From: Candidatus Dojkabacteria bacterium
Lineage (GTDB): Bacteria > Patescibacteriota > Dojkabacteria > JAHIVN01
DNA length: 64,000 nucleotides
Direction of reading: 5' to 3'
NCBI GenBank assembly: GCA_016932045.1
Contig: JAFGDO010000003.1
Span: 12,115-76,114, forward strand
Below the pieces are notes generated by a model. That model saw only the letters and a list, made by a program, of their open reading frames with translations, was not told where the DNA came from and searched no databases. This document shows, piece by piece, positions 9,095 to 37,389 of this stretch; positions within the stretch are counted from its first letter, which is position 1, and each line of letters begins with the position of its first letter. Both the position numbers and the translations under genes were made by a program.

Positions 9095-9150
9095 TATTTT
9101 TAATATAAAATTAACTCTTTTTCTTGTTAATAAACACTGCTTGACTGTGA

Positions 9151-9260
9151 CTGGGATGAGAATCCACAAGGCAGAACTTAGCGATGCTAAGCAGAACGAA
9201 GCAGAGCTATAGTCTGACCTAGTCCCGTGGATTTATTCTACGGGAGAACTCACCTTTCTC
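9151..9260 (+). repeat. copy 1 of a ~100-nt structured repeat (candidate small RNA/regulatory element) lying between the tRNA-Met(CAT) gene and the ftsH start
   Basis: About 85% identical over ~70 nt to the copy at 9556-9652. Shared hairpin CTTAGCGATGCTAAG. The terminal hairpin shows compensatory changes between copies (CCCGTGG...CTACGGG here, CCCGC...GCGGG in copy 2). Confidence 0.5.
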
Positions 9261-9324
9261 ATTATACTTCTTTTTATTAAACACAGGCTTATCTGCAAGT
9301 TACATTAAACGACGACTACCTGAA

Positions 9325-9398
9325 TGACGGGGGTGAGAATCGAACTCACGACCTGGGGCTTATGAGTCCCCCGCTCTAACCTACTGAGCTACCCCGCC
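9325..9398 (-). tRNA. tRNA-Met (anticodon CAT); elongator Met or lysidine-modified Ile2 cannot be distinguished
   Basis: Manual fold of the reverse complement. Acceptor GGCGGGG/CCCCGTC with one G-U pair, D-arm TAGCTCAGTAGGTTAGAGC, anticodon loop CTCATAA, T-arm GTGAGTTCGATTCTCAC. No encoded CCA. Confidence 0.8.
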
Positions 9399-9555
9399 CC
9401 AGTCAGGCAGATGAACTCTTAATTCAAAGATCCATAGACAAATTTGCATACAAATTCATAAACTACGAATAATTTTACTACATAGGCAAATGAAATAGAA
9501 ATAATAATTAATGATTCATTGTCGGCGTTTGGAAATTTATATTTGTAAAAATTGC

Positions 9556-9652
9556 GGGGGCTGGAATCCTCAAGGCAGAACTTAGCGATGCTGAGTAAAA
9601 CGAAGCAGGGCTAAAGTCTGACCTAGTCCCGCTCTGCGGGAGAACCAACCTG
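9556..9652 (+). repeat. copy 2 of the ~100-nt structured repeat, between tRNA-Met and tRNA-fMet
   Basis: See copy 1. Hairpin CTTAGCGATGCTGAG. The T/G change gives a G-U pair only if transcribed from the plus strand. Terminal hairpin CCCGCTCTGCGGG. Confidence 0.5.
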
Positions 9653-13922: not shown

Positions 13923-15119
13923 TTACGCACCCTGACTTCTCTTTAAGATCAACTTTTCGTTATAAGAAAACAATAAAAACGCAGAGGCAAAACACACGAG
14001 CTGGCCATAATTCCACAAAAACGAAGTTAAGAAGTTCAAACTACTCAAATATCCAAAAGAAAAAAACACCATTGGACAGAGACAAGTAATTAAAACAAAA
14101 AGAATCTTTTTCTTAAAATCGTAACCTTTCGCAAGAAAATAAACTGGCAGTATAGCAAATGTTAGAGAATATGGCTTAAACCTTGGCAAGATGAGCATTA
14201 TACACAACACACCAAAAGAAAATAATTTTAGATAACTTCTTTTCTCTCGAGTATATCTATAGAAAGTAAATAGAACAAACAGCACAAAAAGAGCGTATAG
14301 TACCACTACTAATTCATTATTGCCATCCATAATTCTTTCTGCTGCCTCATTAATAAGAAAAAACATCGAAGGATTATTCACGCCGCCTTTTTCAAAAATC
14401 GGACTGTGTTGGTTATCTATACCCCCTGTAAGTGACAAATAGTAGGAAGAAGAAATCCCTGGGAACAAAATATACGATAAAAGATGAAGTAACAAAAACG
14501 TAAGTACAACAAGAGAAAAGAGCCTCATCTTTTCTCTCTTTGAAGTCCTTGAAAACAAAAGAAGAATACTATAAAAGACTGAAGTAATCTTCAAAAAGGA
14601 AAGAACTCCAATTATAAAAGCCGGCAATCGATGCTTTCTATTAATAATACCAAGAAAAATAAAAGCAAATAAACTCAGCTCAATTAAACCCACATTCCCC
14701 ACAAGAAAATTCCAGAAAGTGGCTGCAAAACAGCTTGTGAGTAATGTAACAAAGAATAATGGCTTAAAAGTCGTATCCCCTCTTTTAACAATAAAATAAA
14801 CGAATAAAAGAAGCAGAACCCAAATAAGATGGTACGTAAAAACTGAATCAAGAAAGCGAAGAAGTTTTAAAAAAAACAGACTTAAGGGAGGGTAAATGAA
14901 CGAGAACGGACTATCTGAATAAATCTTTACATTACTTACTACATACGGATCACAACCGTCATCATAAGTTCTTACTGCCCCACAGTAAATATTAAAATCA
15001 CCACCTGCAAGATATCTCAGAAGGCCAACCTCAATGAAGAATATACTAAGAATGATGATTGTTATACAGCAAGTATTAAATGCAGCCTCCCAGATAGACT
15101 TTGATTCTTCTTCCGCCAT
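13923..15119 (-). CDS. polytopic integral membrane protein (about 10 TM; VirB6-like role possible)
   Basis: 398 aa, almost entirely hydrophobic helices. Lies directly downstream of the VirB4-like ATPase on the same strand. Confidence 0.45.
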   Translation of the reverse strand: MAEEESKSIWEAAFNTCCITIIILSIFFIEVGLLRYLAGGDFNIYCGAVRTYDDGCDPYVVSNVKIYSDSPFSFIYPPLSLFFLKLLRFLDSVFTYHLIWVLLLLFVYFIVKRGDTTFKPLFFVTLLTSCFAATFWNFLVGNVGLIELSLFAFIFLGIINRKHRLPAFIIGVLSFLKITSVFYSILLLFSRTSKREKMRLFSLVVLTFLLLHLLSYILFPGISSSYYLSLTGGIDNQHSPIFEKGGVNNPSMFFLINEAAERIMDGNNELVVVLYALFVLFVLFTFYRYTREKRSYLKLFSFGVLCIMLILPRFKPYSLTFAILPVYFLAKGYDFKKKILFVLITCLCPMVFFSFGYLSSLNFLTSFLWNYGQLVCFASAFLLFSYNEKLILKRSQGA

Positions 15120-18651: not shown

Positions 18652-19128
18652 TCAAAACTTTTCAATTCCAGCAATATCTTCTCTTACCTGTCTCTTCATC
18701 TCCCTCTCTTTAATTTTTTTCCTCTTATCATACTTCTTCCTTCCTTTCCCAGCACCTATTTTCACTTTTAATTTCCCATTTTGACTAAATATCTCTAGTG
18801 GGATTATAGCCATTTTCTTGGCATCTTGGAGAATTCGTAATTCTTCAACCTCTCTTTTAGTTAATAGTAATTTCCTCCTTATCCTTGGATCGTAATCAGT
18901 AATATCCGCAAACTTCCACTTTGAAATGTGAGCATTTATAAGCCATACTTCACCCCTTTCAACTCTTACAAAGCTCTCTTTTAGACTGATATTCCCATTT
19001 CTTACAGACTTGACTTCGTACCCTCTCAAAACCATACCTGCTACAAAACTCTTAGAGATTTCATAATCAAACCTAGCACGTTTATTCTGAGCTAGTATCT
19101 TTTTACTCGAGGGATTCTTTGTATTCAT
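18652..19128 (-). CDS. smpB: SsrA-binding protein SmpB
   Basis: KILAQNKRARFDYEI...GYEVKSVR is the canonical SmpB N-terminus. Start set at the internal ATG (19128); the table ORF extends to 19200. Confidence 0.85.
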   Translation of the reverse strand: MNTKNPSSKKILAQNKRARFDYEISKSFVAGMVLRGYEVKSVRNGNISLKESFVRVERGEVWLINAHISKWKFADITDYDPRIRRKLLLTKREVEELRILQDAKKMAIIPLEIFSQNGKLKVKIGAGKGRKKYDKRKKIKEREMKRQVREDIAGIEKF

Positions 19129-21301
19129 CAACCTTTGTAAGTTCGACTCTAAATATCTTAGTTTCGTCAAGAATATACATAACTCTACCTTCGTTATCAA
19201 CTATTATGTCCTTTATGTTACTCAGATAGTTATTCTCTCCTCTATATATGATCTGTCCGACATATCTTCCCTGATCAGGAGTCAGACTGCCCCCCTTTGT
19301 CACAACAACAACACGCCTATTTGCACTATCTCCAACATAAACGAGAAAATCATCCAGCTCTAAACAGGAAGCATCATTAATAGACTTATCAAGTCCGACC
19401 AAAGCATATGGATCAAGTTTTTCGCCAAAATATCTTACAATACCATCTGCCTGAGTCAGTATATATATCTTGCCATCAATCTCCATGTCTTTCGCCCCTC
19501 CAAACTGTGTACTCGAAAGCCTGAGTTCCGGTAAAGAATAGCCCGAGGAATACTTCGTAATTTTCCTCACATCATTCTTACTAGGTCTAAGTAAGTACAA
19601 TATATTTGTTCCATCTGGAGTAACATAATTATCTATTTCTTTCACTTCGCCAACACTTGTTGAGGATAAACCCGCAAGTCTCTCAACTTTCTTCTCGTCT
19701 AGATGCAATTTTAAAATCCCCTCCCCTCCATCAAAAATTATCATGTCTCCCTCCCCATCGAAAACGATTGAAGACGGAGACCTTAAGTCTGTATCTTCAC
19801 CCACAACACTGTAAACCTCCCCCCCCTCTACACTTAACTCGTAAATAGTAGATAAATTAGGATCAGAAACATACAATCTCGAACCAAGCATAGTCATATC
19901 AGCTGCCTGCGCTCCTTCAATGTAGCCTGCAATATCTGTAATAATATTCCCATCATCAAGCAAAATTACTTTTCGAACGTCATCCATAATAGCATACCCC
20001 TCTTCTTCCTTTGCTCTGATCTCATCAGTCATGATGCCGTACTCTTTTATGCTACTCAGTGATCCTAGCGCCTCTTCCAAAACTGCAACTGCTTCGGCAA
20101 TATTTCCTGCAGCACCAAGATTTCTTCCATTATTAAATTTCTCATCAATATCCGAAAGTACTGCCATTATTTCAGTCTTTTTATCATTCGTATCACTATG
20201 CCTTTGTATACCTCTTATGCTGATGTAAAGCAAACAGACCACAACAATGATAAGAACTATAATCCCTCTAATTGAGGTTTTTGGACCAGCACCTTTAAGA
20301 TACATACCTCTCTTACTCATACCCAGAAGACCTTCCCAGATATGAGTCTTTCCGAATACGAGTAACTTCTGTCCAAATTCTTTAAGTTTTATAAGCACAA
20401 CCTTATATGTCTCTTTATCAGTAACTTTATCCTTTAGATTCTTAATTGAATTTCCTTTCCTTAGGTCATTGTGCCGTTTAGCCTTCTCTAGCTCTTCGTC
20501 CCTCCCGGTTTCTTGAGGGATTTTTAATTTAGACTCCTCATACTCTTTCACAGATACGTCATCTTCTTCCTCAACTTTTGTTTCCTTCTTGCCTATCTGA
20601 TTAATCTTCTCAGACTCAAATTTACTGTCTGTATGCAACAAGGCTTCTCCTGCTTTATTTGAGATTCGGAGTAGTAAGATTCCAAGTAGAGAATCCTGCT
20701 TTACCCCCTTAATACGATCAAAATTAAAATCCCGAACTACATTCTGCATATCCTTTTCCGAGATTGTAAGCCCGCCTTGTGGAGAAAGAAGGACAAAATT
20801 ATCGTTCTCCTTGAACTTCCCGCTTCCCGTTTTAATAAGTCCTCTACCAGAGAGATCCTTTAATCCATCTGATAAACTGATAAGTCTGTCATCCCGTTCT
20901 AGCAATATACTTCCCTCCCCCAAAATAGCCATGTATACATACTCCTTATAGGTCACTAAGGCTTCTATATTCAAGTCAATTCCCGACTCCGCTGCTACTT
21001 CTTCTCTATCAAGTAAATGCTCTAGCCTCTTTGCAGTAGACATAATTGCTTTTTCAAGTCTAGCTATAATGTTTCTCTCATTTCCCTCGTTGTAGTAAAC
21101 ATCTTGGAGATTTTCTGATAGCAGATCTCCTGCCATTCTGCTATCAAATTCCTCTGGAGCGCTCAAACTTATAACAACATAAAGCTTGCCAAATAAGGAA
21201 GCCCTTCCTCCCTCAGTAGGAGTTACAAAAATGCCTGACCATTTCCCTCCTTTTGGATCACCAGTGAAAAATGTTGTATCAAAAGAATATTTTTCTTCCA
21301 T
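19103..21301 (-). CDS. single-pass membrane protein with a cytoplasmic N-domain and an extracellular beta-propeller-like (NHL/YVTN-type repeat) C-domain
   Basis: TM IRGIIVLIIVVVCLLYISI at about aa 330. The C-terminal 390 aa has repeated hydrophobic-G/D-rich blade-like segments (YVSDPNLSTIYEL, IVFDGEGDMIIFDG, YVGDSANRRVVVV). Confidence 0.5.
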   Translation of the reverse strand: MEEKYSFDTTFFTGDPKGGKWSGIFVTPTEGGRASLFGKLYVVISLSAPEEFDSRMAGDLLSENLQDVYYNEGNERNIIARLEKAIMSTAKRLEHLLDREEVAAESGIDLNIEALVTYKEYVYMAILGEGSILLERDDRLISLSDGLKDLSGRGLIKTGSGKFKENDNFVLLSPQGGLTISEKDMQNVVRDFNFDRIKGVKQDSLLGILLLRISNKAGEALLHTDSKFESEKINQIGKKETKVEEEDDVSVKEYEESKLKIPQETGRDEELEKAKRHNDLRKGNSIKNLKDKVTDKETYKVVLIKLKEFGQKLLVFGKTHIWEGLLGMSKRGMYLKGAGPKTSIRGIIVLIIVVVCLLYISIRGIQRHSDTNDKKTEIMAVLSDIDEKFNNGRNLGAAGNIAEAVAVLEEALGSLSSIKEYGIMTDEIRAKEEEGYAIMDDVRKVILLDDGNIITDIAGYIEGAQAADMTMLGSRLYVSDPNLSTIYELSVEGGEVYSVVGEDTDLRSPSSIVFDGEGDMIIFDGGEGILKLHLDEKKVERLAGLSSTSVGEVKEIDNYVTPDGTNILYLLRPSKNDVRKITKYSSGYSLPELRLSSTQFGGAKDMEIDGKIYILTQADGIVRYFGEKLDPYALVGLDKSINDASCLELDDFLVYVGDSANRRVVVVTKGGSLTPDQGRYVGQIIYRGENNYLSNIKDIIVDNEGRVMYILDETKIFRVELTKVDEYKESLE

Positions 21302-24302: not shown

Positions 24303-24803
24303 TTAAAAGTGACTAACCTCTGAAACATCACATGCTCCAGGAAAGAAAAACTGGAAAACCGGAGAATCTCCCATTCCAGCGGCCGCGTCAAAACATTTAT
24401 TTGGATCTCTCAAACCTAAAAGACTCATCACAAGCCTTACAGCAAGATAACCACCAAAAACAAGTGCAAAACTAAAAACAACATTCTTTCCTCTTGTTTT
24501 TAATTCAGTTAGTTTCTGCTCATCCCCTCCGCTTAACATCCACTGAACACCTATAGATCCAACAACAAACATAAAATAAGGAATCGATAGAACCCAAATA
24601 GCGATAATCACATTTACAAAGATAGACTCGGCTTCGCGCAACCTCATCGGTTCGGCATAAATATCAGCTGCAAAAACCTTTGTATTAATCTGAGTTAGAA
24701 AAACAGTAAACCCCGTTGCAAAAGTCATTATTATTTTTTTTGCCTTTTTCATCAATGGATTAAGCAATGAATTATAATAAACGAATTGAGTCGTCTTATT
24801 CAT
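24303..24803 (-). CDS. VirB2/TrbC-like T4SS pilin-family paralogue
   Basis: Signal/TM, then a TM1 - SGGDEQKLTELKTRGK loop - TM2 module shared with five other ORFs in 26.4-29.8 kb. Confidence 0.5.
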   Translation of the reverse strand: MNKTTQFVYYNSLLNPLMKKAKKIIMTFATGFTVFLTQINTKVFAADIYAEPMRLREAESIFVNVIIAIWVLSIPYFMFVVGSIGVQWMLSGGDEQKLTELKTRGKNVVFSFALVFGGYLAVRLVMSLLGLRDPNKCFDAAAGMGDSPVFQFFFPGACDVSEVSHF

Positions 24804-24858
24804 AATTTAACTACAAATACGTATAAAATACAAGCTAGAAGCTCCTGCCAGGCTAAAG

Positions 24859-26433
24859 TTGAGCTTTCACACATACTTGTCTACTTTTTTAAAAATAGTA
24901 AAATTAGGAAGACACATAGATATGATAGAAAAAATACATAGCATAACTGAATATTTAAATAGACAACCTCTTTTATATGTTGGGCTAATACTTCTTGTTG
25001 CTTCTTTTTTGCTTTTTATCCCTAATGACCCTGATTTCCCCTGGCATCTTAAGTATGGAGAATTAACACTTGAACAAGGGCCAATATCACACGATCCATA
25101 TTCGCACACATTCGCAGACTATACTTTTTACGACTATCAATGGTTCACACATGTCCTCATGTACACCTTTTATAAACTAGGTGGTTTCACACTTGTTGCG
25201 ATATTGTATGGCGTAATTGTTCTTGCTGCCCTACTCTTTAGCGTGAATACTCCTATAAAGAAAGTTGTCACAAATAAAAGCAAGATAATACTACTGTTAG
25301 TGGGATTACTTGCTGTGAAACCGATTATCGGCATAAGACCTCAAATGGCATCCGTTCTCGGGATAGCTATCGTTTACTTCCTTACGATAAAATATCTTAG
25401 AACCAAAAGTAAGACAGTATTTCTCATACCTTTAGTAATACTCATCTGGGCAAATCTTCATCCCGGTTTTCTTTCAGGAATTATGGTTCTTCTTATTATT
25501 ATATTTTCTGAGATTTTAAAAGTAATACTAAGAAAGTTAGGAGTGTCACAAAAGCAAGACCCCTTTTATGAGAAAAAACCTCCAAGTTTTAAAATACTAA
25601 TCCTAGTACTTATTCTTTCATCTTGCGCTACCCTTTGCACTCCATTCTTCTATAATATAGTTAAACAGTCGGTACTTTTCTCACTAGACGCCTATGCCCA
25701 AGAGCACATAGTTGAATGGCTTGGCGTTAACTTTCAGGAATTGACTGGAAAATTTATTGTCATCTACATGCTGATCACAGTGGCATCAATATTTAGAAGG
25801 AAGTTTATGAACTTAACCGAGGTTCTGATTGTGGCAGTCTTCGGTTTCATGGCGCTACAAAGTGTACGCCATATACCGCTTTTTGTCATCGTTTCGATTC
25901 CAAGTATACTCGCAAGCCCTGATTGGAAGTTTTTAAACCGACTTGATAAGTTCAAGTCAACGTTCTGGCTATTTACAAAAAGTTCCTTTTTGACCGCAGG
26001 ACTTTTAGTTTTCCTATTTACTACTTTTCAATTTTTTATAATCAACTCGGACAGGAAGGCAATATACGGAGAAGTAAAATACCCTTATGAGGCTGTGCAA
26101 TTCCTAAAGGAAAAAAATTATGAGGGGAATATCTTTAATAATTACGGCTGGGGTGGTTTTTTAATATGGGAGTATCCTGAAAAAAAGACATTTGTCGATG
26201 GACGTATGACAAGTTGGCGAATAGATCATGTTTCTATCCTTGAGGAATATGTAGATCTTTCCGATCTTCTAACTCCAGACTGGCAGGAAAAGTTACAGCA
26301 ATATGAAGTAAGAATTATTCTTTCAGATACCTCTACTCCCTTATGCAACGTGCTTAGAAACTCTAGTGACTGGGAGCTTGTGTATGAAGACGACCTTTCA
26401 GTAGTACTCTATAAAAAAGAGCCTTACGAGTAA
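24859..26433 (+). CDS. polytopic membrane protein with C-terminal soluble domain (GT-C-like topology; possible glycosyltransferase)
   Basis: 524 aa. About 11 TM helices over aa 30-400, then a roughly 120-aa hydrophilic domain. Topology guess only. Confidence 0.45.
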   Translation: MSFHTYLSTFLKIVKLGRHIDMIEKIHSITEYLNRQPLLYVGLILLVASFLLFIPNDPDFPWHLKYGELTLEQGPISHDPYSHTFADYTFYDYQWFTHVLMYTFYKLGGFTLVAILYGVIVLAALLFSVNTPIKKVVTNKSKIILLLVGLLAVKPIIGIRPQMASVLGIAIVYFLTIKYLRTKSKTVFLIPLVILIWANLHPGFLSGIMVLLIIIFSEILKVILRKLGVSQKQDPFYEKKPPSFKILILVLILSSCATLCTPFFYNIVKQSVLFSLDAYAQEHIVEWLGVNFQELTGKFIVIYMLITVASIFRRKFMNLTEVLIVAVFGFMALQSVRHIPLFVIVSIPSILASPDWKFLNRLDKFKSTFWLFTKSSFLTAGLLVFLFTTFQFFIINSDRKAIYGEVKYPYEAVQFLKEKNYEGNIFNNYGWGGFLIWEYPEKKTFVDGRMTSWRIDHVSILEEYVDLSDLLTPDWQEKLQQYEVRIILSDTSTPLCNVLRNSSDWELVYEDDLSVVLYKKEPYE

Positions 26434-26465
26434 GGCTCTTCCAAATGACTTATTTAATAAAGAAT

Positions 26466-26927
26466 TTATGTTCCACTAGGCTTATTATTTACGTTTAGAG
26501 CATTATTAAATTCACCTCCGGCTCCGAATAGCCACAATACAACAAAAATTCCAACAATAGCTATAATCATTGCTGCAAACCCCATAAGTATTGCTTTCAC
26601 GGCGGCCTTTGATTCTTCTAGTTTAGATGCATCACCCTGGCTCGACATGAATTTAATTCCGGCCATAGCCGAATATATGATTGCAACGATAAAAACAACA
26701 ACAAAAAGGATCGTTAGTCCCCATTGAACTCTAACCTTTGCCCATGCAACAGGTCCTTCTTGTCCAGTTCCAAGTCCAAGGCCTGAAATAATTTTTTCTA
26801 TCCAATCAGGAACATAGTCTTGTGCATATACCGGATTTGCTGCATTAAAAAGTACAGCTCCAGCCACACCTGCAAAAATTGAAGCTTTCGAGAGTGTTTT
26901 AACTACTACATCTTTTACTCTTTCCAT
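26466..26927 (-). CDS. VirB2/TrbC-like T4SS pilin-family paralogue
   Basis: Signal peptide (AAN..VYAQ), TM1 ILFVVVFIVAIIYSAMAGI, loop KFMSSQGDASKLEESKAAVK, TM2 AILMGFAAMIIAIVGIFVV. Confidence 0.55.
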   Translation of the reverse strand: MERVKDVVVKTLSKASIFAGVAGAVLFNAANPVYAQDYVPDWIEKIISGLGLGTGQEGPVAWAKVRVQWGLTILFVVVFIVAIIYSAMAGIKFMSSQGDASKLEESKAAVKAILMGFAAMIIAIVGIFVVLWLFGAGGEFNNALNVNNKPSGT

Positions 26928-26999
26928 TATGTGTATATAACTAAAATAAACATTTAGATTTTATCAAATCTAACACAGATAAGTAAAGTTTGCAACATA

Positions 27000-27677
27000 T
27001 TAGTTACAAGACCAGTCAGAAGCTCCTTCAGAACACTCGCACTCACAGTCAGAATAAACATCTCCGCACTGGTCAGTTTTAGATTCATATTGCACATGAT
27101 CACCACAGACTGCAAGATTTTGGGCAAGATCAAACACACTCCCAACTCCAATTAGCCACGTTACAACACTTACGCCTATAAAGACAACTACAACAACCAT
27201 AAGACCCTTAAAGGCATTTGAAACCCATTTTCTTGCACTTTGAACCTTAGTTTCTTCTCCCATACTACTCATCCATCTAATTGCCCCTATCCCAATTGCA
27301 ACTATAAACGCAACAAAAAGAATAGCTGTGAAAAAAGTATATAAAAAAGCAATGATGGACCAAATACTAGCTGTGCCCTCCATACTCCAAAAGTTGACCG
27401 GCTTCAAAATATTTAAAACCAAACCTCCAGAACCAAATACTTTCTCTAGCCAATCATCACCATCAACTGGAATTATAACTTCGCCTTCAGATTTCTGCGT
27501 TGAGATTTCGCAACATACTTGCCCACTTGCACAAGGCTCGCATAAACTAGAATCTGCAGGCACATCGCATTGGCTCTCGTACCGACACCCATAGTAGCCT
27601 GCTTCAGCAACCCGTGGCTGAAAAGCCCCAACGACCAAAAATAAAGTAATGATTATGATAAATGTTATTCTCTTCAT
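27000..27677 (-). CDS. cysteine-rich secreted domain fused to VirB2/TrbC-like pilin module
   Basis: Signal peptide, then GYYGCRYESQCD...CEPCASGQVCCE. Pilin module TM1 - SSMGEETKVQSARK - TM2. Additional C-terminal Cys cluster CGDVYSDCECECSEG. Confidence 0.55.
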   Translation of the reverse strand: MKRITFIIIITLFLVVGAFQPRVAEAGYYGCRYESQCDVPADSSLCEPCASGQVCCEISTQKSEGEVIIPVDGDDWLEKVFGSGGLVLNILKPVNFWSMEGTASIWSIIAFLYTFFTAILFVAFIVAIGIGAIRWMSSMGEETKVQSARKWVSNAFKGLMVVVVVFIGVSVVTWLIGVGSVFDLAQNLAVCGDHVQYESKTDQCGDVYSDCECECSEGASDWSCN

Positions 27678-27711
27678 ATTGTTTACTTAATTTATAATGG
27701 CAATGTGAATT

Positions 27712-28266
27712 CTAGCTCCCAAGGATTTCATCAAGAAAAGAAAAATCTGTGATGTTGACACCAAGGATTCCTGCCATAACACCTAGAATTACAAGAAAGC
27801 CAAATGTTATCACAATAGCCATTAGTCCATTCTTTATTACCTTTTTTGCCTTCTGAAGCTTTTCTTCGCTGTCTCCCGCTGTTATCCATAAAAAGCCGCC
27901 GTATCCAATAACTCCGACAAGACCTGCAACTAACGCTGATATAGCTACAATTATTAATGTTTTGATAAATGTTTTTATATACGAAACATCAACATCTATA
28001 CCTATGAGACGAAAACTTTCCGGAGGCCCATCGTCTCCCCAAATCTTCGTTCCCCAACCTTCAAATGCTTCACAACACACCATACCACTTGGGCAATCCC
28101 CTCCACAATTTGATACCGCCACTTGCTTATCGGCACTGCACTGGCTTTCCCACTGACAAGTATATCCCGCCGCATGTACAGGATTAAATCGGCCAAATGA
28201 AACAATACAGAAAACAGTCGTCAGTAAGACTAAAATAGCTTTTTTCTTCATTTTATTTTTTCTCAA
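27712..28266 (-). CDS. cysteine-rich secreted domain fused to VirB2/TrbC-like pilin module (paralogue of 27000-27677)
   Basis: Signal peptide, then GYTCQWESQCSADKQVAVSNCGGDCPSGMVCCE with the same Cys spacing as its neighbour. Pilin module TM1 - AGDSEEKLQKAKK - TM2. Confidence 0.55.
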   Translation of the reverse strand: MRKNKMKKKAILVLLTTVFCIVSFGRFNPVHAAGYTCQWESQCSADKQVAVSNCGGDCPSGMVCCEAFEGWGTKIWGDDGPPESFRLIGIDVDVSYIKTFIKTLIIVAISALVAGLVGVIGYGGFLWITAGDSEEKLQKAKKVIKNGLMAIVITFGFLVILGVMAGILGVNITDFSFLDEILGS

Positions 28267-28610
28267 CTTACAAGAGTTCCCTGAACTCCAAGTAAACTAG
28301 CAAGAACTTTTACTATTAATGGGGCCAATGCAATAATTGCAAATCCTACTGCTGCTGCAGTAGCAATTTTCATACTCTTTGCCTCTTTCTCAGGATTTCC
28401 ACCCGCTGTCATACGAACGAATCCAGCATAGATAACGCTAAAAATAAACCCAAGTACAGCAAGCGGCGTTACAACACCACTCACTTTAGTTATAAGTTCG
28501 CCTATACTTTCAAGTGTAATGGGACTAGGAATAGATATAGCAAAAACAGGAGTATAACCAAGGATAAAAAACAATATAGTGAGTATTAAAATTTTTACTG
28601 TTTTTCTCAT
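28263..28610 (-). CDS. minimal VirB2/TrbC-like T4SS pilin
   Basis: 115 aa. Signal peptide, TM1 VVTPLAVLGFIFSVIYAGFV, loop RMTAGGNPEKEAKSMK, TM2 IATAAAVGFAIIALAPLIV. Four-nt ATGA overlap with the downstream gene suggests an operon. Confidence 0.55.
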   Translation of the reverse strand: MRKTVKILILTILFFILGYTPVFAISIPSPITLESIGELITKVSGVVTPLAVLGFIFSVIYAGFVRMTAGGNPEKEAKSMKIATAAAVGFAIIALAPLIVKVLASLLGVQGTLVS

Positions 28611-28680
28611 TTTATGAAAAAGTTAATCTTAGATGAAGATAGTTATTTAAAACATAAATATCGATCTTCTTGTTCCCCGA

Positions 28681-29796
28681 TTAGAGAAATATCTCACCAA
28701 TTCCAAGTATATCTAACCCTATGAAATTTAGCAAAATCGGTATCATAGCACCAAAAATGACTGCAGCGATAGCACTCACCGCAATACTCTTACCTTCCTT
28801 TATCTTTTCGGGATCATCGGTATTTAACATAATTCCCGCTTGAATGAATCGCACAACAGCTAGTGCTGTTACAACACCGACAAAGATTCTCATAACTGCT
28901 ATGATGATTCCTTTTTCCGATGAATTTATACAGCCCAGCTCTGTCCAAATATTTCCATCTGCCATTTCTACATTACATACTGATGCTTCTCCTCCATCAG
29001 CACTACAAGCACAAGTTGGATTTTCCCCTTTCCAACTACATACGCACAAACAACATGCCTCATTCATTTCTCCATCTTCACCTCTGCAAACTTCTTCACA
29101 TGTTAGAGTCGAAGGAAGCTCACTGCCCCCTGGGCCTGGACTTGGTCCTGGTGGAGTTGGATCGGAATCCTGCCAGCCACTGCTTCCACACCACCATTCT
29201 GCTCCAGCTGGAGCAGGACAGGTAGGAACATCAGTAATTCTCATGCTCTCTCCCTGACTAAAGCAAGAATTAACCCAAGGCCATATAAATCCTGTTCCAG
29301 GACAACAATCATTTGCCCCCCACTGACATCCTGCCATACATTTATTAGTACCAGCACATGTTAAAAAATCATCCTTAAGTATATCGGCAATATCAGAATT
29401 GTCTAGGGTTTCCTTTACTGCTCCACCTGCCGCCGTACAATAAAGTCCATAAGTGCATGCTCTATCATTTTTATAAAAATATGTCCTTGCCTCACTTACG
29501 TCATCATCGCTGCATTCACCAGGATTCATCTCCTTTATTTTCTCTGCTATTGCTGATCTTTTTGTCCCCCTAGATTCTGCACAACAATCGTCATTCCCCG
29601 AGACATCCGTATGTTCGTAACCATCATCACATCCCCATATGGCATCCGTTTTTGCATAAACAATATTCATTGCACCAATAGAGATTGATGCTATAAGAAT
29701 AATTATATACACAAGCGATCCTCTTACTATTGATCTTTTTAGATTATGAAGTATACGCATAAAATAAACAATTAGAACCCTTAGAAAAATTAACAA
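28681..29796 (-). CDS. large cysteine-rich ectodomain (about 27 Cys) fused to VirB2/TrbC-like pilin module
   Basis: N-terminal TM/signal, then a roughly 250-aa Cys-rich region (CCAESRG, CAGTNKCMAGCQWGANDCCPG, CCLCVCSWKGENPTCAC). Pilin module TM1 - NTDDPEKIKEGK - TM2. Confidence 0.55.
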   Translation of the reverse strand: MLIFLRVLIVYFMRILHNLKRSIVRGSLVYIIILIASISIGAMNIVYAKTDAIWGCDDGYEHTDVSGNDDCCAESRGTKRSAIAEKIKEMNPGECSDDDVSEARTYFYKNDRACTYGLYCTAAGGAVKETLDNSDIADILKDDFLTCAGTNKCMAGCQWGANDCCPGTGFIWPWVNSCFSQGESMRITDVPTCPAPAGAEWWCGSSGWQDSDPTPPGPSPGPGGSELPSTLTCEEVCRGEDGEMNEACCLCVCSWKGENPTCACSADGGEASVCNVEMADGNIWTELGCINSSEKGIIIAVMRIFVGVVTALAVVRFIQAGIMLNTDDPEKIKEGKSIAVSAIAAVIFGAMIPILLNFIGLDILGIGEIFL

Positions 29797-29809: not shown

Positions 29810-32383
29810 TTACAGATTTACATTATCCCCAGACCTCACCTCACCCCTAACTATCATCTCCGCAACCTTATTCTCAACCTGCTCCTGTACTACTCTTCTC
29901 ATTTCTCTTGCACCGAATACTGGATTATAGCCTAAATGAGCAAGTCTTTCTAGTAGTGCATCACTGTAGTTCAGTTTAATACCTTTATCCAAAAGTTTCA
30001 AGCGAACCTGCTCTACAAACTTCTTTGCAATCAGCTTAACATCCTCACGGGAAAGCGGCTTAAACATAATTATTTTATCGAAACGGTTTAAGAATTCTAT
30101 CCTAAATACTCTTTTTAATTCCTCCAAAGCCTGAGTTCTGACTTCTTCATATACTTTGTCTTGCTCAATAAGATCTGCAATCAATTTTGATCCGGCATTT
30201 GACGTTGCAATAATTATAGTATTTGAAAAATCTATCCTGCGTCCTAATCCGTCATCAAGATACCCTTCGTCCAAAACCTGCAGGAACAGATCCAGCACCT
30301 TTGGGTTTGCTTTGTCTATCTCATCAAGAAGAACTAGTGAAAAAGGATTGTCATAAACCGGTTCAGTTAAGAATCCTCCCTCAAACGATCCCTGCTCCGA
30401 AGTATAGCCAATTAATCTTTTCAAATTTTCCTCCTCATGATACTCGCTCATATCAAGCCTCACCATCCTCTTTTCGCTCCCGTAATAAACTTCTGCAACC
30501 GTTTTAGCTACCTCTGTCTTTCCAACACCTGTTGGTCCAAAAAACAAAAATGAAGCAATTGGTTTGCCAGCTTGTCCAAGCCCGCTTCTTGCTCGACGTA
30601 ATGCCCCACATACAGCATCAATTGCTTCGTTCTGGTCAATCACTCTCTTGTGCATTTCACCCTCAAGCTTAGCTAGTTTTTCCGTCTCACTCTCTTTGAT
30701 CGACCCCAGCTCTACCCCAACTTTTGAAGAAACTATCTTCGCAACCTCATCATACTCAATCGGCTTTTTACCTTTCAAATTTTTGAAATTAACAACAGTT
30801 TCCTTAAGCAGATTTATAGCTTTATCCGGAAGTACCCTGTCATATGCGAATTTATGTGAAAGCTCAATTGAAGCTTTAACACCTGAATATGCAATTTTTA
30901 TGTTGTACTCATTTTCAATCGTTGGAACCTCATCAATGACAATTTGAGTAGCCACTTCATCAGTAGGTATATTCATCTCTACTTCTGAGAATATACTTGC
31001 TAGCGCTTTATGAGGTCGGATGAATCTTGTAAACTGCCCTTTATCGCTTGTTACTATCATCCTAAAGTTGTGAGCATCATAAGCATTGACAATGATATTT
31101 ACGATCTCCCCGGTTATTTCTCTTCGCAAATTTAAAAGTTGATCAAAATTATCAAGTACAAGAATAACATTCTTTGATTGTGCTACCTCCTCAAATACTT
31201 TCTGCAATTTCTTCTTAAACGAATCTACGTTTTTTGAAGTTGAAAAGGCTTTGTTAAAATCGAAGCCGATAAGCCTCATATCTTGAAGCTTCGGAGGTAT
31301 ATCTTCTACTACCATCCTAACAGCAAGGCTTTTAATCAAAGTTGTTTTACCAACCCCAGGTTCTCCAAGAACTAGAACTCCACTCTTTTCTCCTTTTTCA
31401 AGCAGAGCAATAAGTTGATTTAATTCGTTCTCGCGGGCAAGTGACACTACAAATTCACCTTGAATAACAGCGTTAGTAAAATCGCGACAATAGGAGTTCA
31501 ACATAGGAGTAAAACGAGAAGTATATGCCCTGTTAACAGTCGTCTTCGGCTTGATGCTCACCTTATCTTTCCATACCTCCACATACCTTTGTTTCAATGC
31601 CTCGTTTTGCAACCAGAGTTTTATACCATCAAAGTCCTTGGAGATGATATTGAACCTCTGAAGATATTCTAAAAAAAACTTTTGAAGGATAACAAAAGTG
31701 AAGCTCTCCTCCCCTGCGTATTTAAAATTATTCTCAAAGGCAAATGAAAACGAGTCGGCAATAAGATCTCTTAGAACTTCAACTTTACCTTTACCGACCG
31801 TTGCTTGAGAAAGTAATCCCAGATCAAAATTCTCAAATGATAAACCAAGACGCTCAATTAGAATACGGGCCCTATTCAGCTTCAAAAGCTTCACAAATAA
31901 CTCTTGCAAATAGTCATTCTTGGGAATATTAAATATATAGTCAAGGAGCCAGACAGTATGATGATTTAAGTAGTCGGTTACTTCGATAGTAAGGTTAGTC
32001 CTGCCTCGCTCAAGATCCTTTCTCAATTTATGTAAATTCTTCACCCGAGCCTTATCAAGAAAAACTCCCCGGTCCCTTAAAAAATAAAGCGAATATAGAA
32101 AAATACAAACAAATATCCAAAAGGCAAGACCTGTAGCTCCTTCAACATTAACTATCCTTTGAAAGTAGTAGCCCTTTGTAACCTCGTAGACTATTATCCC
32201 GACTTCTGTAACAAAAACCAGCCAAAAAAGAATTCTCCCCAATACCACCTGGAAAACATTTTCAATCTTCCTTACCCCTTTACCATCTCGCAAATACCGC
32301 CAATCAACGGTAAATTTTACATCATTTAACTCGGGAATATTTATTCTCAATATCTCAGAATCATTCATAAATCGATATAGCAC
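29810..32383 (-). CDS. membrane-anchored ClpA/ClpB-family double AAA+ ATPase (Hsp100-like)
   Basis: Two N-terminal TM helices replace the Clp N-domain. D1 has Walker A GEPGVGKT but DNFD in place of the DE Walker B. D2 has GPTGVGKTE, Walker B LVLLDEID, sensor IIIATSNAG, GAREMRR. Confidence 0.7.
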   Translation of the reverse strand: MLYRFMNDSEILRINIPELNDVKFTVDWRYLRDGKGVRKIENVFQVVLGRILFWLVFVTEVGIIVYEVTKGYYFQRIVNVEGATGLAFWIFVCIFLYSLYFLRDRGVFLDKARVKNLHKLRKDLERGRTNLTIEVTDYLNHHTVWLLDYIFNIPKNDYLQELFVKLLKLNRARILIERLGLSFENFDLGLLSQATVGKGKVEVLRDLIADSFSFAFENNFKYAGEESFTFVILQKFFLEYLQRFNIISKDFDGIKLWLQNEALKQRYVEVWKDKVSIKPKTTVNRAYTSRFTPMLNSYCRDFTNAVIQGEFVVSLARENELNQLIALLEKGEKSGVLVLGEPGVGKTTLIKSLAVRMVVEDIPPKLQDMRLIGFDFNKAFSTSKNVDSFKKKLQKVFEEVAQSKNVILVLDNFDQLLNLRREITGEIVNIIVNAYDAHNFRMIVTSDKGQFTRFIRPHKALASIFSEVEMNIPTDEVATQIVIDEVPTIENEYNIKIAYSGVKASIELSHKFAYDRVLPDKAINLLKETVVNFKNLKGKKPIEYDEVAKIVSSKVGVELGSIKESETEKLAKLEGEMHKRVIDQNEAIDAVCGALRRARSGLGQAGKPIASFLFFGPTGVGKTEVAKTVAEVYYGSEKRMVRLDMSEYHEEENLKRLIGYTSEQGSFEGGFLTEPVYDNPFSLVLLDEIDKANPKVLDLFLQVLDEGYLDDGLGRRIDFSNTIIIATSNAGSKLIADLIEQDKVYEEVRTQALEELKRVFRIEFLNRFDKIIMFKPLSREDVKLIAKKFVEQVRLKLLDKGIKLNYSDALLERLAHLGYNPVFGAREMRRVVQEQVENKVAEMIVRGEVRSGDNVNL

Positions 32384-32440: not shown

Positions 32441-32818
32441 CTAAATAAAAAATCTCACTATCTGAACAAGACACAAAGGCGGAAGAATAACCCAAATAAA
32501 AACAACCGAGATTAGCGGAATAGTAATAAGGATCTGTATAAGTGACCCGCCAAACACCCAAACCACTCGAAAAAATAGACTGATAATTCTCCCACTTATA
32601 CTGGCGTCCTGATACATAGGAACAAATAGATTTGCGAGCATAGGCAGAATATTTAAAGTAGCAAGAGAAAGACTCCAGAATGAGTAGGTCATCTGTAAGC
32701 AAGCACGTAACTGAGCACCGTACCACCAGATCCAGAAGTTAAGGAAGTATTTCTTTAGCATGTCTTGAAAGATAATAGTCTCTTGAATTCTATCAGAAGG
32801 ATTATAAGAGGTAAACAA
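32441..32818 (-). CDS. small integral membrane protein
   Basis: 125-aa ORF with three predicted hydrophobic helices, upstream of and co-oriented with the Clp-like gene. Confidence 0.35.
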   Translation of the reverse strand: MFTSYNPSDRIQETIIFQDMLKKYFLNFWIWWYGAQLRACLQMTYSFWSLSLATLNILPMLANLFVPMYQDASISGRIISLFFRVVWVFGGSLIQILITIPLISVVFIWVILPPLCLVQIVRFFI

Positions 32819-32947: not shown

Positions 32948-32978
32948 ATAAAAAAGGGTGGGATAAATCCCACCCTTT
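32948..32978 (-). terminator. rho-independent terminator downstream of groEL
   Basis: The minus strand reads GGGUGGGA-UUUA-UCCCACCC followed by UUUUUAU: a perfect 8-bp GC-rich stem plus U-tract about 80 nt after the groEL stop. Confidence 0.8.
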
Positions 32979-33055
32979 CCATCTGCCTAAATCTGTTTTA
33001 ATTTTCTCCTATCTGTTTACCCTGAGCGAAGTCAAAGGATTTAGATCTATTTTCT

Positions 33056-35143: not shown

Positions 35144-35170
35144 TTAGCAGTTTAGATTATTAATTGCTAA
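35144..35170. promoter_or_regulatory. CIRCE-like inverted repeat (possible HrcA operator) upstream of groES
   Basis: TTAGCAGTT-N9-AATTGCTAA: 27 nt with 9-nt arms 8/9 self-complementary. Matches the consensus TTAGCACTC-N9-GAGTGCTAA at 6/9 per arm. Lies about 45 nt upstream of the groES start. Confidence 0.5.
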
Positions 35171-35499: not shown

Positions 35500-37389
35500 T
35501 TATGCCTTCTCCACAACTACTTCTATCCTATTCACCGAGCTAGGAAAATGCTTCAGGAATGATGGTAGCCAAGTAGGTGAAAGTTCTATCTCGTAACTTT
35601 TAATTTCATTTACACCATTCAAGTACTCTTCTGCACTTCCTCTATTCTTTCCCTTGATATTTACCTTTACATCATCTTCGTTAACACTTGGAGTGACAAC
35701 TCCAGTTATAGAAAGGGTAATATAGATCTGATTCCCTTCAGTTCTTAAGACTTGTGACTTGTACTCAAATTCTTCAACTTCAACCTCTTGCTCATTATTC
35801 TGTTCAACAAGTACTTGCGCAAGATTATCAACATCCTCTTTTAAGAATGAAAGTGCGGTAGCTTTTACTGTGATACTCAAATTAAAAGTATCTGCTTCTG
35901 CATCAACACCTGGCGAAGCATCTTCATTTACTACTTCGTATGCTATAGTATCTTCAAGTAATTCTCTACTTGTACCAGCCTCCTGCTTTAAACTCTCAAG
36001 CAAATCCTCTTCAAGTTGCTTTACTAAAGAATCCTTAAGAGTGTCATAATCCTGCTGAGATACAACCTTTTTCTTCACAGTGGTTCCGCCAGTAATATTG
36101 TTGAAATTCTTACCGTATAAATTCTCAACATCATAACCTTGCACTCTAAACTCTTTTTTCCCTGAAACATTGTATTCCTCTCCGAAACTATCTGCTACAA
36201 CACCAACATCAATATTACCAATCAGCCCTGGACTCTCGGGATCATCGTCGGGCTTTTTGGCGGGAACAACAACCTCGCCAGCAGTTTTATATTTAAGACC
36301 GCTTTCAACTGATTCAAGGGTAGTCCCAGCAACTACTCTCACATCGCTTTCGGTCATATTGAAGAGGGTTACCTGTCCACTAGCCTTTTCTCCTGTCTCC
36401 TTCTCTCCTGTTGCATCAGCGCTTTCCGATCTATCCTTTGATGATTCTATCATCTTTGCAGGAATCGTTAATGCCTCGATATCAAGTGTAGTAACAGCAG
36501 TATCAGCAACTACTTGTTCCTCAAGCTCTATATCCTTGCTTTCCACTTTTATAATAACCCTACCTCTAGGAAAAACAAAATATGATAGTATAAAAAACAA
36601 AAGAAGAACTACACCCACCCCAATAAATATCTTGGGCTTATTCCCTCCTGAAGTGAAAAACTTCTTCACATTATCAATAGCGCCTGTAAAACTTTCACTA
36701 AGACTAAACCCCCTCTTGTCTTCCCTTACCTCTTTCTTCTTCTTTGGCGCCCGTGACATATAGCTATAAGTACTTAAATCCTTACCAACAAGACCAGCCC
36801 TTTCCTTTTTCTCGCTCCAGCTTAAAGTTCTCTTTTCTTCATCAACATCACCTGCTGTTTCTGATTGCCCTAATGCTTCGGTTTCTTCGTCTGTCTCAAA
36901 TTGTGCAATATCCCCCCCCGCTACCATCTCAAAACCTCCAAGATCAACCTTTTTCGGAGCTATCTTGGATTCAGTTGCTACTTCCTTCGTACTTGATGTA
37001 TCTTCACTCTCTAGGGGTTCTTTTTTCTCTTCTCTCTCGCTTATTAACTCTCTTTTTACGTTTTCTCTACCTTCAACAAATTCCTCTTTAAATCGAGATG
37101 CCTGTTCCCATTTCTCTTTGTTGATCTCACTTACTTGCTCAACAGCAACCAGTTTAGCATTCTTGGCAAGTTTCAATCCGACCTCGTCTTTCGTTACAAG
37201 AATAGCTAGTTTTCCACTCTTCGCTATCTCGGAAGAAAGAAGCTTCAGACTCACAACACTTCCAAGAAGTGCTGCCCTGTCTGGTACGATCAAGATAACC
37301 TTGCCTCCTTCAACATTTTTTATCTTTTCTGCGATGAATATAATTTCCTCATCGAGATCAACAAAAATTTTCTCTGACACTACAAACAA
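35500..37389 (-). CDS. membrane-anchored hypothetical protein (cytoplasmic N-domain, acidic linker, one TM, large extracytoplasmic domain)
   Basis: 629 aa. TM IFIGVGVVLLLFFILSYFVF at about aa 250. Twenty nt downstream of ftsA on the same strand. Confidence 0.45.
   Translation of the reverse strand: MFVVSEKIFVDLDEEIIFIAEKIKNVEGGKVILIVPDRAALLGSVVSLKLLSSEIAKSGKLAILVTKDEVGLKLAKNAKLVAVEQVSEINKEKWEQASRFKEEFVEGRENVKRELISEREEKKEPLESEDTSSTKEVATESKIAPKKVDLGGFEMVAGGDIAQFETDEETEALGQSETAGDVDEEKRTLSWSEKKERAGLVGKDLSTYSYMSRAPKKKKEVREDKRGFSLSESFTGAIDNVKKFFTSGGNKPKIFIGVGVVLLLFFILSYFVFPRGRVIIKVESKDIELEEQVVADTAVTTLDIEALTIPAKMIESSKDRSESADATGEKETGEKASGQVTLFNMTESDVRVVAGTTLESVESGLKYKTAGEVVVPAKKPDDDPESPGLIGNIDVGVVADSFGEEYNVSGKKEFRVQGYDVENLYGKNFNNITGGTTVKKKVVSQQDYDTLKDSLVKQLEEDLLESLKQEAGTSRELLEDTIAYEVVNEDASPGVDAEADTFNLSITVKATALSFLKEDVDNLAQVLVEQNNEQEVEVEEFEYKSQVLRTEGNQIYITLSITGVVTPSVNEDDVKVNIKGKNRGSAEEYLNGVNEIKSYEIELSPTWLPSFLKHFPSSVNRIEVVVEKA

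Follow-up and report, generated by a model that had tools for sequence, protein, structure and literature searches.

Hsp100 proteins are textbook soluble machines. The locus described here raises the question of what such a protein does when it is built into a membrane and encoded directly ahead of a row of pilin genes. It lies in a 64,000-nucleotide stretch of the genome of a Candidatus Dojkabacteria bacterium (assembly GCA_016932045.1, contig JAFGDO010000003.1, positions 12,115 to 76,114; hereafter the window, in whose own numbering all coordinates are given), in which a minus-strand open reading frame (ORF) at 29810..32383 runs for 857 residues from a GTG at 32383 to a stop codon at 29810-29812. 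Its product is a double-ring Hsp100 of the ClpB/ClpC type that is membrane-anchored and combines a catalytically degenerate first AAA+ module (D1) with an intact second one (D2). We tentatively read this protein as a ClpP-independent membrane extractase or unfoldase with a single working ring, encoded by a two-gene module of the Candidate Phyla Radiation (CPR) and having the neighbouring pilins as its likely clients in this lineage; taken as a whole, we give this reading a probability of roughly 0.45. It draws direct support from the architecture of the protein, the state of its motifs, its topology, its partner gene and synteny.

Residues are numbered here from the GTG at 32383. Homologues of the protein, together with an identical NCBI entry (P0001, 852 residues), begin with M-x-x-x-E, which corresponds to the ATG at 32368 (MNDSE); this codon, five codons inside the longest ORF, is probably the true start and yields a protein of 852 residues. 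Reading from the N-terminus, a short cytoplasmic stretch is followed by a membrane hairpin of two helices, by what appears to be a diverged Clp N-domain, and then by D1 and D2. Pfam identifies AAA (residues 336-439, 9e-22) and AAA_lid_9 (476-572, 1e-10), followed by AAA_2 (607-771, 9e-51) and ClpB_D2-small (777-856, 4e-22), and gives no match to Clp_N. Tandem AAA+ modules, with a D1 of the AAA/AAA_lid_9 type and a D2 composed of AAA_2 and ClpB_D2-small, place the protein within the class-I Hsp100/Clp group. An AlphaFold2 model generated from 63 sequences has a mean predicted local distance difference test score (pLDDT) of 88.8, and Foldseek matches this model to ClpC, ClpB and ClpA protomers with a target TM-score of 0.85 and a root-mean-square deviation of 3.4-3.8 Å over about 575 columns (E about 1e-40 or lower).

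A preliminary description of this locus had noted two N-terminal transmembrane helices ahead of the two AAA+ modules, an arrangement that is borne out by hydropathy, by conserved positions, by the modelled helices and by the Pfam domains. The first membrane helix (residues 40-66, IENVFQVVLGRILFWLVFVTEVGIIVY; 32186..32266, minus strand) is conserved in position in relatives and coincides with a modelled helix at 38-69; the second (residues 82-102, GATGLAFWIFVCIFLYSLYFL; 32078..32140, minus strand), likewise supported by hydropathy and by relatives, coincides with a modelled helix at 82-101 and is followed by the conserved motif YS.YLLRDR. Both modelled helices are long, with pLDDT values of 86-95. 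The hydrophobic segments of the hairpin fall at identical alignment positions in relatives and, at the thresholds used, both are detected in most sequences and the first alone in the remainder. Lysine and arginine residues are enriched on either side of the hairpin and sparse between its helices (on average 6.6 before helix 1, 1.4 in the loop of about 15 residues and 5.8 after helix 2), and this distribution indicates an N-in/C-in topology, which would place the ATPase rings in the cytoplasm.

The preliminary description had itself raised the concern that the hydrophobic segments might be an artefact of ORF calling. The idea that this part of the protein is untranslated, or that the product is a functionless pseudo-enzyme, the locus then being an annotation artefact or a decaying gene, finds some footing in the GTG that opens the longest ORF five codons before the likely ATG, and in the lack of an obvious Shine-Dalgarno sequence near that ATG. 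It is nevertheless hardly credible, as in-frame conservation of the first 300 residues extends over a 46-member subfamily and, by profile search, over 276 representatives; the model reaches pLDDT values of 85-96 over the hairpin and N-domain; and the catalytic residues of D2 are invariant. An internal true start is excluded by the conserved hydrophobic segments, by the modelled helices and by the family motifs DWDYL, G.RK, YS.YLLRDR and VNRAYTSR, which recur within the N-terminal 290 residues of sequences that are 37-71% identical overall. The artefact that the preliminary description feared is thus refuted by conservation and by the AlphaFold2 helices.

Residues 103-275 (31559..32077, minus strand), which in the model begin directly after membrane helix 2, form a helical domain that appears to be a diverged derivative of Clp_N. 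An hhalign comparison of the family profile with canonical Clp_N returned a probability of 89.5% (E 2e-6), and searching with an N-terminal profile (A4) leads to relatives of about 900 residues in which Pfam recognises Clp_N behind the membrane segment (P0049, P0184, P0194 and P0204). A Foldseek search of the PDB with the N-terminal 290-residue model gave no significant match (the top hits, to ABC-transporter helices, had E values of about 1, and the Hsp104 N domain one of 7.6); since fold comparison is uninformative here, the assignment of homology rests on hhalign and on the transitive Pfam matches. Together, these two lines of evidence suggest that the Clp N-domain has been kept in diverged form and was not replaced by the membrane helices, as the preliminary description had implied.

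To establish the state of the two rings, D1 was aligned with Thermus thermophilus ClpB (1qvr), and motif states were counted across the 46 members of the Hsp100 subfamily. D1 (residues 311-575; 30659..31453, minus strand, as are all motifs that follow) is predicted to bind nucleotide without hydrolysing it. Its Walker A motif, GEPGVGKT (31343-31366), is the same as that of ClpB, and the lysine is present in all 45 members that could be aligned. At the Walker B position (VILVLDN, 31148-31168), VILVLDNFDQL pairs with VILFIDELHTV of ClpB, so that the aspartate is kept and the catalytic glutamate is replaced by asparagine; a Walker B glutamate substitution is the classic hydrolysis-dead 'trap' change. 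No member carries DE at this position (DN in 23, ED in 9, DD in 7 and EE in 7, of 46). At the former arginine-finger site (ALASIFSEV, 30980-31006), ALASIF pairs with ALERRF, with both arginine fingers lost (RR to SI), and in the pore loop (STSKNVDSFKKKL, 31205-31243) SKNVDSF pairs with AKYRGEF, with the tyrosine replaced by N. Neither the RR pair nor the pore tyrosine was found in any of the 46 sequences. The claims that D1 had retained Walker A and carried LDNFD where the catalytic DE should be were therefore accurate; across the subfamily, the Walker A lysine is kept in every aligned member and the DE pair in none.

D2, together with the D2-small domain (residues 576-857; 29813..30658, minus strand), is the predicted motor. 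Its Walker A (30515-30538), Walker B (LVLLDE, 30320-30337), arginine finger (within EFLNRFDK, 30074-30097) and sensor-2 (within FGAREMRR, 29894-29917) could all be placed by alignment, and the Walker A lysine, the Walker B DE, the sensor-1 asparagine, the arginine finger R767 and the sensor-2 residue R826 are each present in 46/46 members. D2 is intact, as had been proposed, with one qualification: the pore loop (GYTSEQGSFEGG, 30374-30409) is not the canonical GYVG. A phenylalanine, F667, is conserved instead (F in 43/46, L in 3/46), one position past the canonical pore tyrosine in a MAFFT alignment. D2 is also the best-conserved region of the protein, with a mean pairwise identity of 0.67, as compared with 0.48 for D1 and 0.27 for the N-domain.

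Two elements found in related machines are missing. Only 97 residues separate the PDKAI motif from the D2 Walker A, as compared with 157 in ClpC and 218-223 in ClpB controls, and phmmer alignments with ClpB split into two stretches around an absent insert, while those with ClpA form a single stretch of equal length. To judge from this short span and the one-stretch ClpA alignment, the protein has no M-domain, and ClpB-style coupling to DnaK would not be expected. In addition, the ClpP-docking loop [LIVM]-G-[FL], seen as PLGF, RLGF and SMGF in ClpC controls, was found in none of 124 family members, so that docking to ClpP would not be expected either. The NCBIfam models for ClpB, ClpA, ClpV, ClpG and ClpK all match far below their cut-offs (ClpB TIGR03346, 451.5 bits against an equivalog cut-off of 1232.1; ClpA TIGR02639, 407 against 993; ClpV TIGR03345, 379 against 885), and, of the window proteins scanned, none belonged to a type VI secretion system. 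The protein is thus set apart from ClpB by its lack of an M-domain and of an active D1 (DE, arginine fingers and pore tyrosine) as well as by its sub-cut-off score. Set beside ClpC, ClpA and ClpB together, it shares with them the two-ring AAA+ fold, a D2 with all catalytic motifs (41-45% identical to that of ClpB), an apparent remnant of the Clp N-domain and a D1-D2 spacing like that of ClpA. Unlike them, it carries a membrane hairpin at its N-terminus and goes with an obligate small membrane partner, and it differs further in a D1 without the Walker B glutamate, both arginine fingers and the pore tyrosine, in a D2 pore loop other than GYVG, and in lacking both the M-domain of ClpB and ClpC and the ClpP-docking loop of ClpA and ClpC.

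The partner is encoded immediately upstream. The preliminary description had taken the Hsp100 gene to be the first of its operon; it is the second, preceded by a gene for a 106-residue membrane protein (MLKKYFLNFWIWWY...; 32441..32761, minus strand), whose ATG at 32761 agrees with the starts of homologues and with an NCBI 'hypothetical protein' of 106 residues (P0277). The small protein has an aromatic N-terminal motif, FLNFWIWWY, conserved proline, glycine and arginine positions, and a C-terminal region of about 45 residues that is strongly hydrophobic; it has no match in Pfam or NCBIfam. A homologue lies directly upstream of the ATPase gene in 26/26 related loci with upstream DNA, including the most distant relatives examined (L005, L008, L019, L020, L022, L023 and L024). 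In these loci the small gene usually overlaps the start of the ATPase gene by 1-23 nucleotides, which suggests translational coupling; in the window there is no overlap, and 72 nucleotides separate the small gene from the probable Hsp100 ATG. Since this gene order is kept in every one of the 26 loci, from Dojkabacteria to distant Patescibacteria, the conserved unit is a two-gene module consisting of a polytopic membrane protein of about 105-130 residues and a membrane-tethered class-I Hsp100. The window holds every part of it: the hairpin, the N-domain, the degenerate D1, the intact D2 and the upstream small membrane-protein gene. The small membrane protein, and not the pilins, is the tightest and the sole universal partner of the Hsp100.

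The module is widespread. At E<=1e-3, the N-terminal profile A4 retrieved 276 representatives (at 50% identity) from 1.84 billion proteins, many of them 830-930 residues long, and the small-protein family comprises at least 194 clusters, of which the named ones come from Patescibacteria (the Parcubacteria-group Buchananbacteria, Falkowbacteria, Uhrbacteria and Magasanikbacteria, plus Dojkabacteria). A further search for homologues with a diverse N-terminal profile yielded just 11 fragments and did not widen the taxonomic range. Longer members carry an additional element on the cytoplasmic N-terminus: a CxxC zinc ribbon is present in 28/35 members of at least 870 residues, with the DnaJ-type pattern CxxCxGxG in 23, and in 1/91 shorter ones. 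Carriers, in which the ribbon lies within the N-terminal 60 or so residues, include P0178, P0179, P0184, P0189, P0194, P0198, P0204 and P0209, and the proteins of loci L020, L022 and L024. The subfamily of the window has lost the ribbon, and the Hsp100 of the window has a small beta-hairpin in its place. The DnaJ-type ribbon is known from the client-binding region of that chaperone, and we count its presence in long relatives in favour of the extractase or unfoldase reading. Neither Pfam nor NCBIfam has a model that covers the Hsp100 and small-partner module, and a search of the published literature for a membrane-anchored Hsp100, or for ClpB or ClpC, in CPR bacteria found no description; a 2026 preprint on a 'Pam pilus' proved to concern an unrelated chaperone-usher-like system. 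The module delineated here thus has no name, no curated model and no description that we could find.

Downstream, the Hsp100 gene adjoins a pilin cluster, as the preliminary description had stated. An array of six paralogues (24303..29796) begins 13 nucleotides past the Hsp100 stop on the same strand, and a strong terminator lies upstream of the unit, on the groEL side. The six genes, all on the minus strand, occupy 28681-29796, 28263-28610, 27712-28266, 27000-27677, 26466-26927 and 24303-24803. The second exceeds the cut-off of the Pfam T4SS_pilin model PF18895 (43.1 bits against 26.6) and also matches, below cut-off, an NCBIfam model for a pilin-like conjugal transfer protein; the first, third, fourth and sixth score 19-25 bits against PF18895, below its cut-off, and the fifth has no match. 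A local hidden Markov model (HMM) built from the six recovers all of them with E values of 1e-10 to 1e-22. All six paralogues share a VirB2/TrbC-like hairpin at the C-terminus, to which three add Cys-rich N-terminal domains; these are pilins of the VirB2/TrbC type, belonging to a type IV secretion system (T4SS), and not type IV pilus pilins. In published accounts of the Patescibacteria T4SS, 2-11 VirB2-like pilins of divergent sequence are encoded in an array, and those of Southlakia epibionticum are essential; the six genes found here fit this picture (PMC12102498; PMC10633639).

The Cys-rich extensions belong to the pilins at 28681-29796, 27712-28266 and 27000-27677, two of which share the pattern G-Y-x-C-x-x-E-S-Q-C ... 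C-C-E; the first is 371 residues long, with many cysteines and a proline-rich linker. One possibility is that a VirB2-like anchor here carries a tip or adhesin domain rich in disulfides. A plus-strand gene for a 524-residue polytopic membrane protein (24859-26433), without a Pfam or NCBIfam match, separates the fifth pilin from the sixth. An equivalent is called at the same position in the copy of the window's own contig (L001), and the arrays of close relatives (L009 and L010) show a corresponding gap, which more distant arrays lack.

Conservation of this arrangement was examined in related loci retrieved with a short alignment around the VNRAYTSR motif, a pattern that finds Dojkabacteria-type relatives only. 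Using the local HMM, we found a same-strand array of 6-8 pilins directly after the ATPase gene in every Dojkabacteria-type locus (13 distinct loci), and the gene layout of a further locus type (three copies) matches, with two Pfam T4SS_pilin hits. The linkage persists down to about 35% identity, and in most of these loci the first pilin starts within about 0-50 nucleotides of the ATPase stop (684 in L010). Such proximity invites the view that the Hsp100 is a dedicated motor for pilus biogenesis or secretion that assembles or exports the co-transcribed VirB2-like pilins, for example by taking over the pilin-dislocating role ascribed to VirB4 in classical type IV secretion systems. The 13-nucleotide spacing on a shared strand, a terminator upstream of the unit with none inside it, and the persistence of the array across Dojkabacteria-type loci all favour this view, as does the failure to recognise a VirB4 among the window proteins scanned, in which the sole conjugation-type ATPase is VirD4/TraD-like (15149-17611, minus strand). 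The same conserved block, however, also holds groESL and an FtsA-like gene, and, as set out below, the module is far more widespread than its linkage to pilins and its predicted orientation is the wrong one for pushing outward; we therefore regard a dedicated pilus motor as unlikely.

On its other side the module follows groES-groEL. An intrinsic-terminator-like hairpin with 13 pairs and a T run (32951..32980, minus strand) lies just downstream of groEL and separates groESL from the unit. No canonical CIRCE/HrcA operator was found in the window; the sole degenerate, CIRCE-like inverted repeat (TTAGCA-N15-TGCTAA, 35144-35170) stands upstream of groES, between that gene and a TTGACA/TAAAAT promoter-like pair, whereas the Hsp100 unit has no such repeat ahead of it. 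Given the terminator after groEL and a CIRCE-like repeat only before groES, the small gene, the ATPase gene and the pilin genes probably form one transcription unit apart from groESL. In Dojkabacteria-type loci these genes are part of a syntenic block of about 25 kb, which runs from the FtsA-like gene through an unknown gene, groES, groEL, the small gene, the Hsp100 gene and the pilins to SpoIID.

This proximity bears on a further explanation, in which the protein is a general proteostasis chaperone, the lineage's equivalent of ClpB or ClpC for cytosolic proteins, with a tether that is incidental or merely concentrates it at the membrane. The gene directly follows groES-groEL in all Dojkabacteria-type loci, HSP20 is encoded near one distant locus, D2 is close in sequence to that of bona fide ClpB, and the probable counterpart in Southlakia is flagged 'core family' in the Southlakia table. 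Against this, the protein is without the M-domain needed for DnaK-dependent disaggregation and without the D1 activity and D1 pore tyrosine that ClpB uses; the terminator after groESL is strong, and the CIRCE-like repeat stands upstream of groES only. The hairpin and the obligate membrane partner are conserved over a very deep family and so are hard to call incidental, and Southlakia has a canonical ClpC and ClpP in addition. A general chaperone role is, on this evidence, improbable without being far-fetched. Other AAA+ proteostasis genes among the window proteins scanned are a normal FtsH (7166-9169) and a Lon ATPase module.

How, then, might a membrane-tethered unfoldase of this kind work? 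In solved Hsp100 hexamers (ClpA, ClpB, ClpC and Hsp104) the N-domains sit on top of D1, and substrate enters the pore at D1 and leaves it at D2. Extending this arrangement to the protein of the window, we infer hexamer formation, a division of labour between the rings, a pulling direction and the identity of the clients. D1 would bind ATP, because Walker A is kept, and would probably not hydrolyse it, because the Walker B glutamate and both arginine fingers are gone; it would then act as an assembly or scaffold ring, and one without the pore-loop tyrosine for gripping substrate. D2, with all its catalytic residues and a conserved pore-loop phenylalanine, would be the sole motor. Because the N-domain follows directly on membrane helix 2, and N-domains crown D1, the N-domain/D1 entry face of the hexamer would lie against the cytoplasmic side of the membrane, with the small partner and twelve membrane helices beside it and the D2 exit face towards the cytoplasm. 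With threading from D1 to D2 and the entry face at the membrane, the machine would draw membrane-embedded or membrane-associated clients into the cytoplasm, much as FtsH, Msp1 and Cdc48 do and without a protease of its own, and an outward secretion motor becomes less likely. In this lineage the six VirB2-like pilins, probably co-transcribed and waiting as a membrane-embedded pool, would be the most likely major clients, to be dislodged, turned over or exchanged between paralogues. The preliminary description had proposed a dedicated unfoldase or a secretion motor. Of these, a specialised, membrane-tethered unfoldase is the part that we favour; the position of the entry face speaks against a secretion motor, and dedication to pilins does not hold for the family as a whole.

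The same geometry bears on an outward translocation motor like the Plasmodium exporter PTEX, in which the small protein would assemble into an oligomeric channel for cargo that the Hsp100 would unfold and thread through it. The HSP101-EXP2-PTEX150 complex provides a precedent, as there an Hsp100 drives export through a membrane pore, and the obligate small membrane partner would suit such a design. In PTEX, however, the D2 exit face is docked on the pore, whereas the N-terminal anchor of the present protein would leave that face in the cytoplasm; the external hairpin loop has only about 15 residues; and the pilins have apparent N-terminal signal peptides (identified by eye) and hence would use the Sec route. 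We consider an outward translocator of this type very unlikely.

Several observations weigh against reading the protein as a pilin-directed extractase, and in part against extraction by threading altogether. The pilin synteny that the preliminary description proposed to look for in relatives is present in every Dojkabacteria-type locus examined and missing further afield: of the five distant loci whose downstream DNA is available, none has a same-strand pilin array. Genes near the distant loci include mraZ and division (dcw) genes (L005 and L023), tRNA synthetases (L022), a single T4SS_pilin on the opposite strand (L024), a type IV pilus-type N_methyl protein (L020) and, in one locus, HSP20. 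As distant members stand beside other genes without a same-strand pilin array, the family as a whole is not pilin-dedicated, and its link to pilins is lineage-specific. Moreover, since the whole block of about 25 kb is syntenic, the adjacency of ATPase and pilins could by itself reflect inherited gene order and not functional coupling. The D2 pore loop of many distant members is short and devoid of aromatic residues, so that threading of substrate may not be universal in the family. Finally, that the protein forms hexamers, that D1 binds ATP and that threading runs in the proposed direction are all expectations carried over from ClpA, ClpB, ClpC and Hsp104.

Evidence from Southlakia, a cultured Saccharibacterium and the sole genetically tractable relative, in which VirB2-like arrays are reported to be essential for the epibiotic lifestyle (PMC10633639), points the same way. 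Its SEML1_0700 encodes an 860-residue 'AAA family ATPase' with AAA (276-381) and AAA_2 (544-706) matches, a D2-small domain and no Clp_N match, and the start of this gene is overlapped by SEML1_0701, a hypothetical gene of 127 residues. Judged by domain layout and gene arrangement, this pair is a probable counterpart of the module; an 860-residue candidate for SEML1_0700 among our sequences, P0397, belongs instead to another Dojkabacteria-type locus. In transposon sequencing of Southlakia, SEML1_0700 and SEML1_0701 were non-essential at the first two time points and showed a growth deficit at the last, whereas the T4SS pilins were essential, which also counts against a dedicated pilus motor. 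Southlakia has, besides, ClpP and a canonical ClpC, the latter with a UVR motif and two Clp_N repeats; both are scored non-essential. If the pair is orthologous to the module, then the module coexists with ClpC and ClpP and is not required for pilin function in Southlakia. The words 'Clp' and 'AAA' do not occur in the main text of the two papers on these pilin arrays, where an associated Hsp100 or small partner is apparently unmentioned (PMC12102498; PMC10633639).

In L020, a gene for a type IV pilus-type prepilin (Pfam N_methyl; 9036-9632 of that locus) directly follows the membrane Hsp100, in the place taken elsewhere by VirB2-like pilins; this adjacency could be a coincidence or a second kind of pilin association.

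The membrane-linked extractase that we favour has partial parallels among known AAA+ systems. In FtsH and Msp1/ATAD1, an N-terminal anchor holds the entry side of a hexameric AAA+ ring at the cytoplasmic membrane face, which is the geometry that we envisage here; these are, however, single-ring members of the classical AAA clade, and FtsH has its own protease, whereas the present protein is a two-ring Hsp100 with neither a protease nor a ClpP loop. By analogy, Cdc48/p97 working with Hrd1/Derlin in endoplasmic-reticulum-associated degradation may offer a model for a double-ring AAA+ that pulls proteins from the membrane together with a small polytopic membrane partner, and NSF and Pex1/Pex6, type-II AAA+ proteins with one inactive ring, may show how one ring can serve assembly and the other work. 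All of these belong to an unrelated, eukaryotic AAA+ clade in which the ATPase is soluble and recruited, and no ubiquitin-like targeting is evident here. Plasmodium HSP101 offers a parallel in that this Hsp100 stays bound to a membrane complex and serves protein traffic at a membrane, as we would expect of the present protein; it differs in being soluble, in having two active rings and in pushing outward with its D2 exit face on the pore, where we would place the entry face at the membrane. For the pilins, the closest comparisons are with VirB4, a cytoplasmic or membrane ATPase proposed to dislodge membrane-integrated VirB2 pilin, and with TraQ, an inner-membrane F-pilin chaperone of about 100 residues; the small membrane protein, the ATPase and the VirB2-like pilins make up a similar gene content here. 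There is no sequence relationship in either case: VirB4 is of the FtsK/HerA type, and the small partner follows the ATPase across the CPR and not the pilins.

Several other features of the window were noted. The VirD4/TraD-like coupling ATPase lies about 7 kb beyond the pilin array and has an N-terminal membrane segment, DUF87, TrwB_AAD_bind and TraG-D_C domains and sub-cut-off matches to the NCBIfam TraD and VirD4-like models; it is followed by a GT87 glycosyltransferase (13923-15119, minus strand). Two minus-strand genes of the syntenic block, at 35500-37389 (629 residues) and 19103-21301 (732 residues), encode proteins without a Pfam or NCBIfam match; in related loci, the first is always flanked by groES and the FtsA-like gene. 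The Lon module is a minus-strand ORF at 48094-49293 (399 residues) that matches TIGR00763 below cut-off (375 bits) and only over positions 243-571, the AAA+ and lid part of Lon. The protease domain is missing, and the product may be a protease-less Lon-like ATPase; a similar gene of 395-417 residues adjoins the L25 and YidC genes in L003 and L006. Through nearly the whole of the first 60 kb of the window the GC skew is strongly negative (-0.1 to -0.33), apart from one near-zero bin at 40-42 kb, and the genes there are almost all on the minus strand; at 60-64 kb the skew approaches zero and genes switch to the plus strand, which may mark the boundary of a replication origin or terminus.

A deep, conserved Hsp100 lineage that is built into the membrane, has a single working ring, lacks the elements for coupling to DnaK and ClpP and has a constant tiny partner would extend the known modes of action of this class of proteins, and its D1 would offer a natural 'D1-dead' experiment for studies of how the rings share work. 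A bolder and distinctly doubtful possibility is that in Dojkabacteria the small protein, the Hsp100 and the 6-8 VirB2-like pilins form a self-contained pilin-handling engine, whose Hsp100 hexamer, with its single working ring, would dislodge pilins from the membrane pool for polymerisation or for the swapping of paralogues. Were this so, an Hsp100 would be doing the job ascribed to VirB4, in what would be the first Hsp100-powered pilus system and the first bacterial Hsp100 membrane-protein dislocase. The linkage to VirB2-like arrays in one class makes the module a testable candidate for pilin extraction, turnover or exchange, and its spread over the CPR/Patescibacteria takes in a large share of bacterial diversity in which envelope biology and proteostasis are almost unknown.

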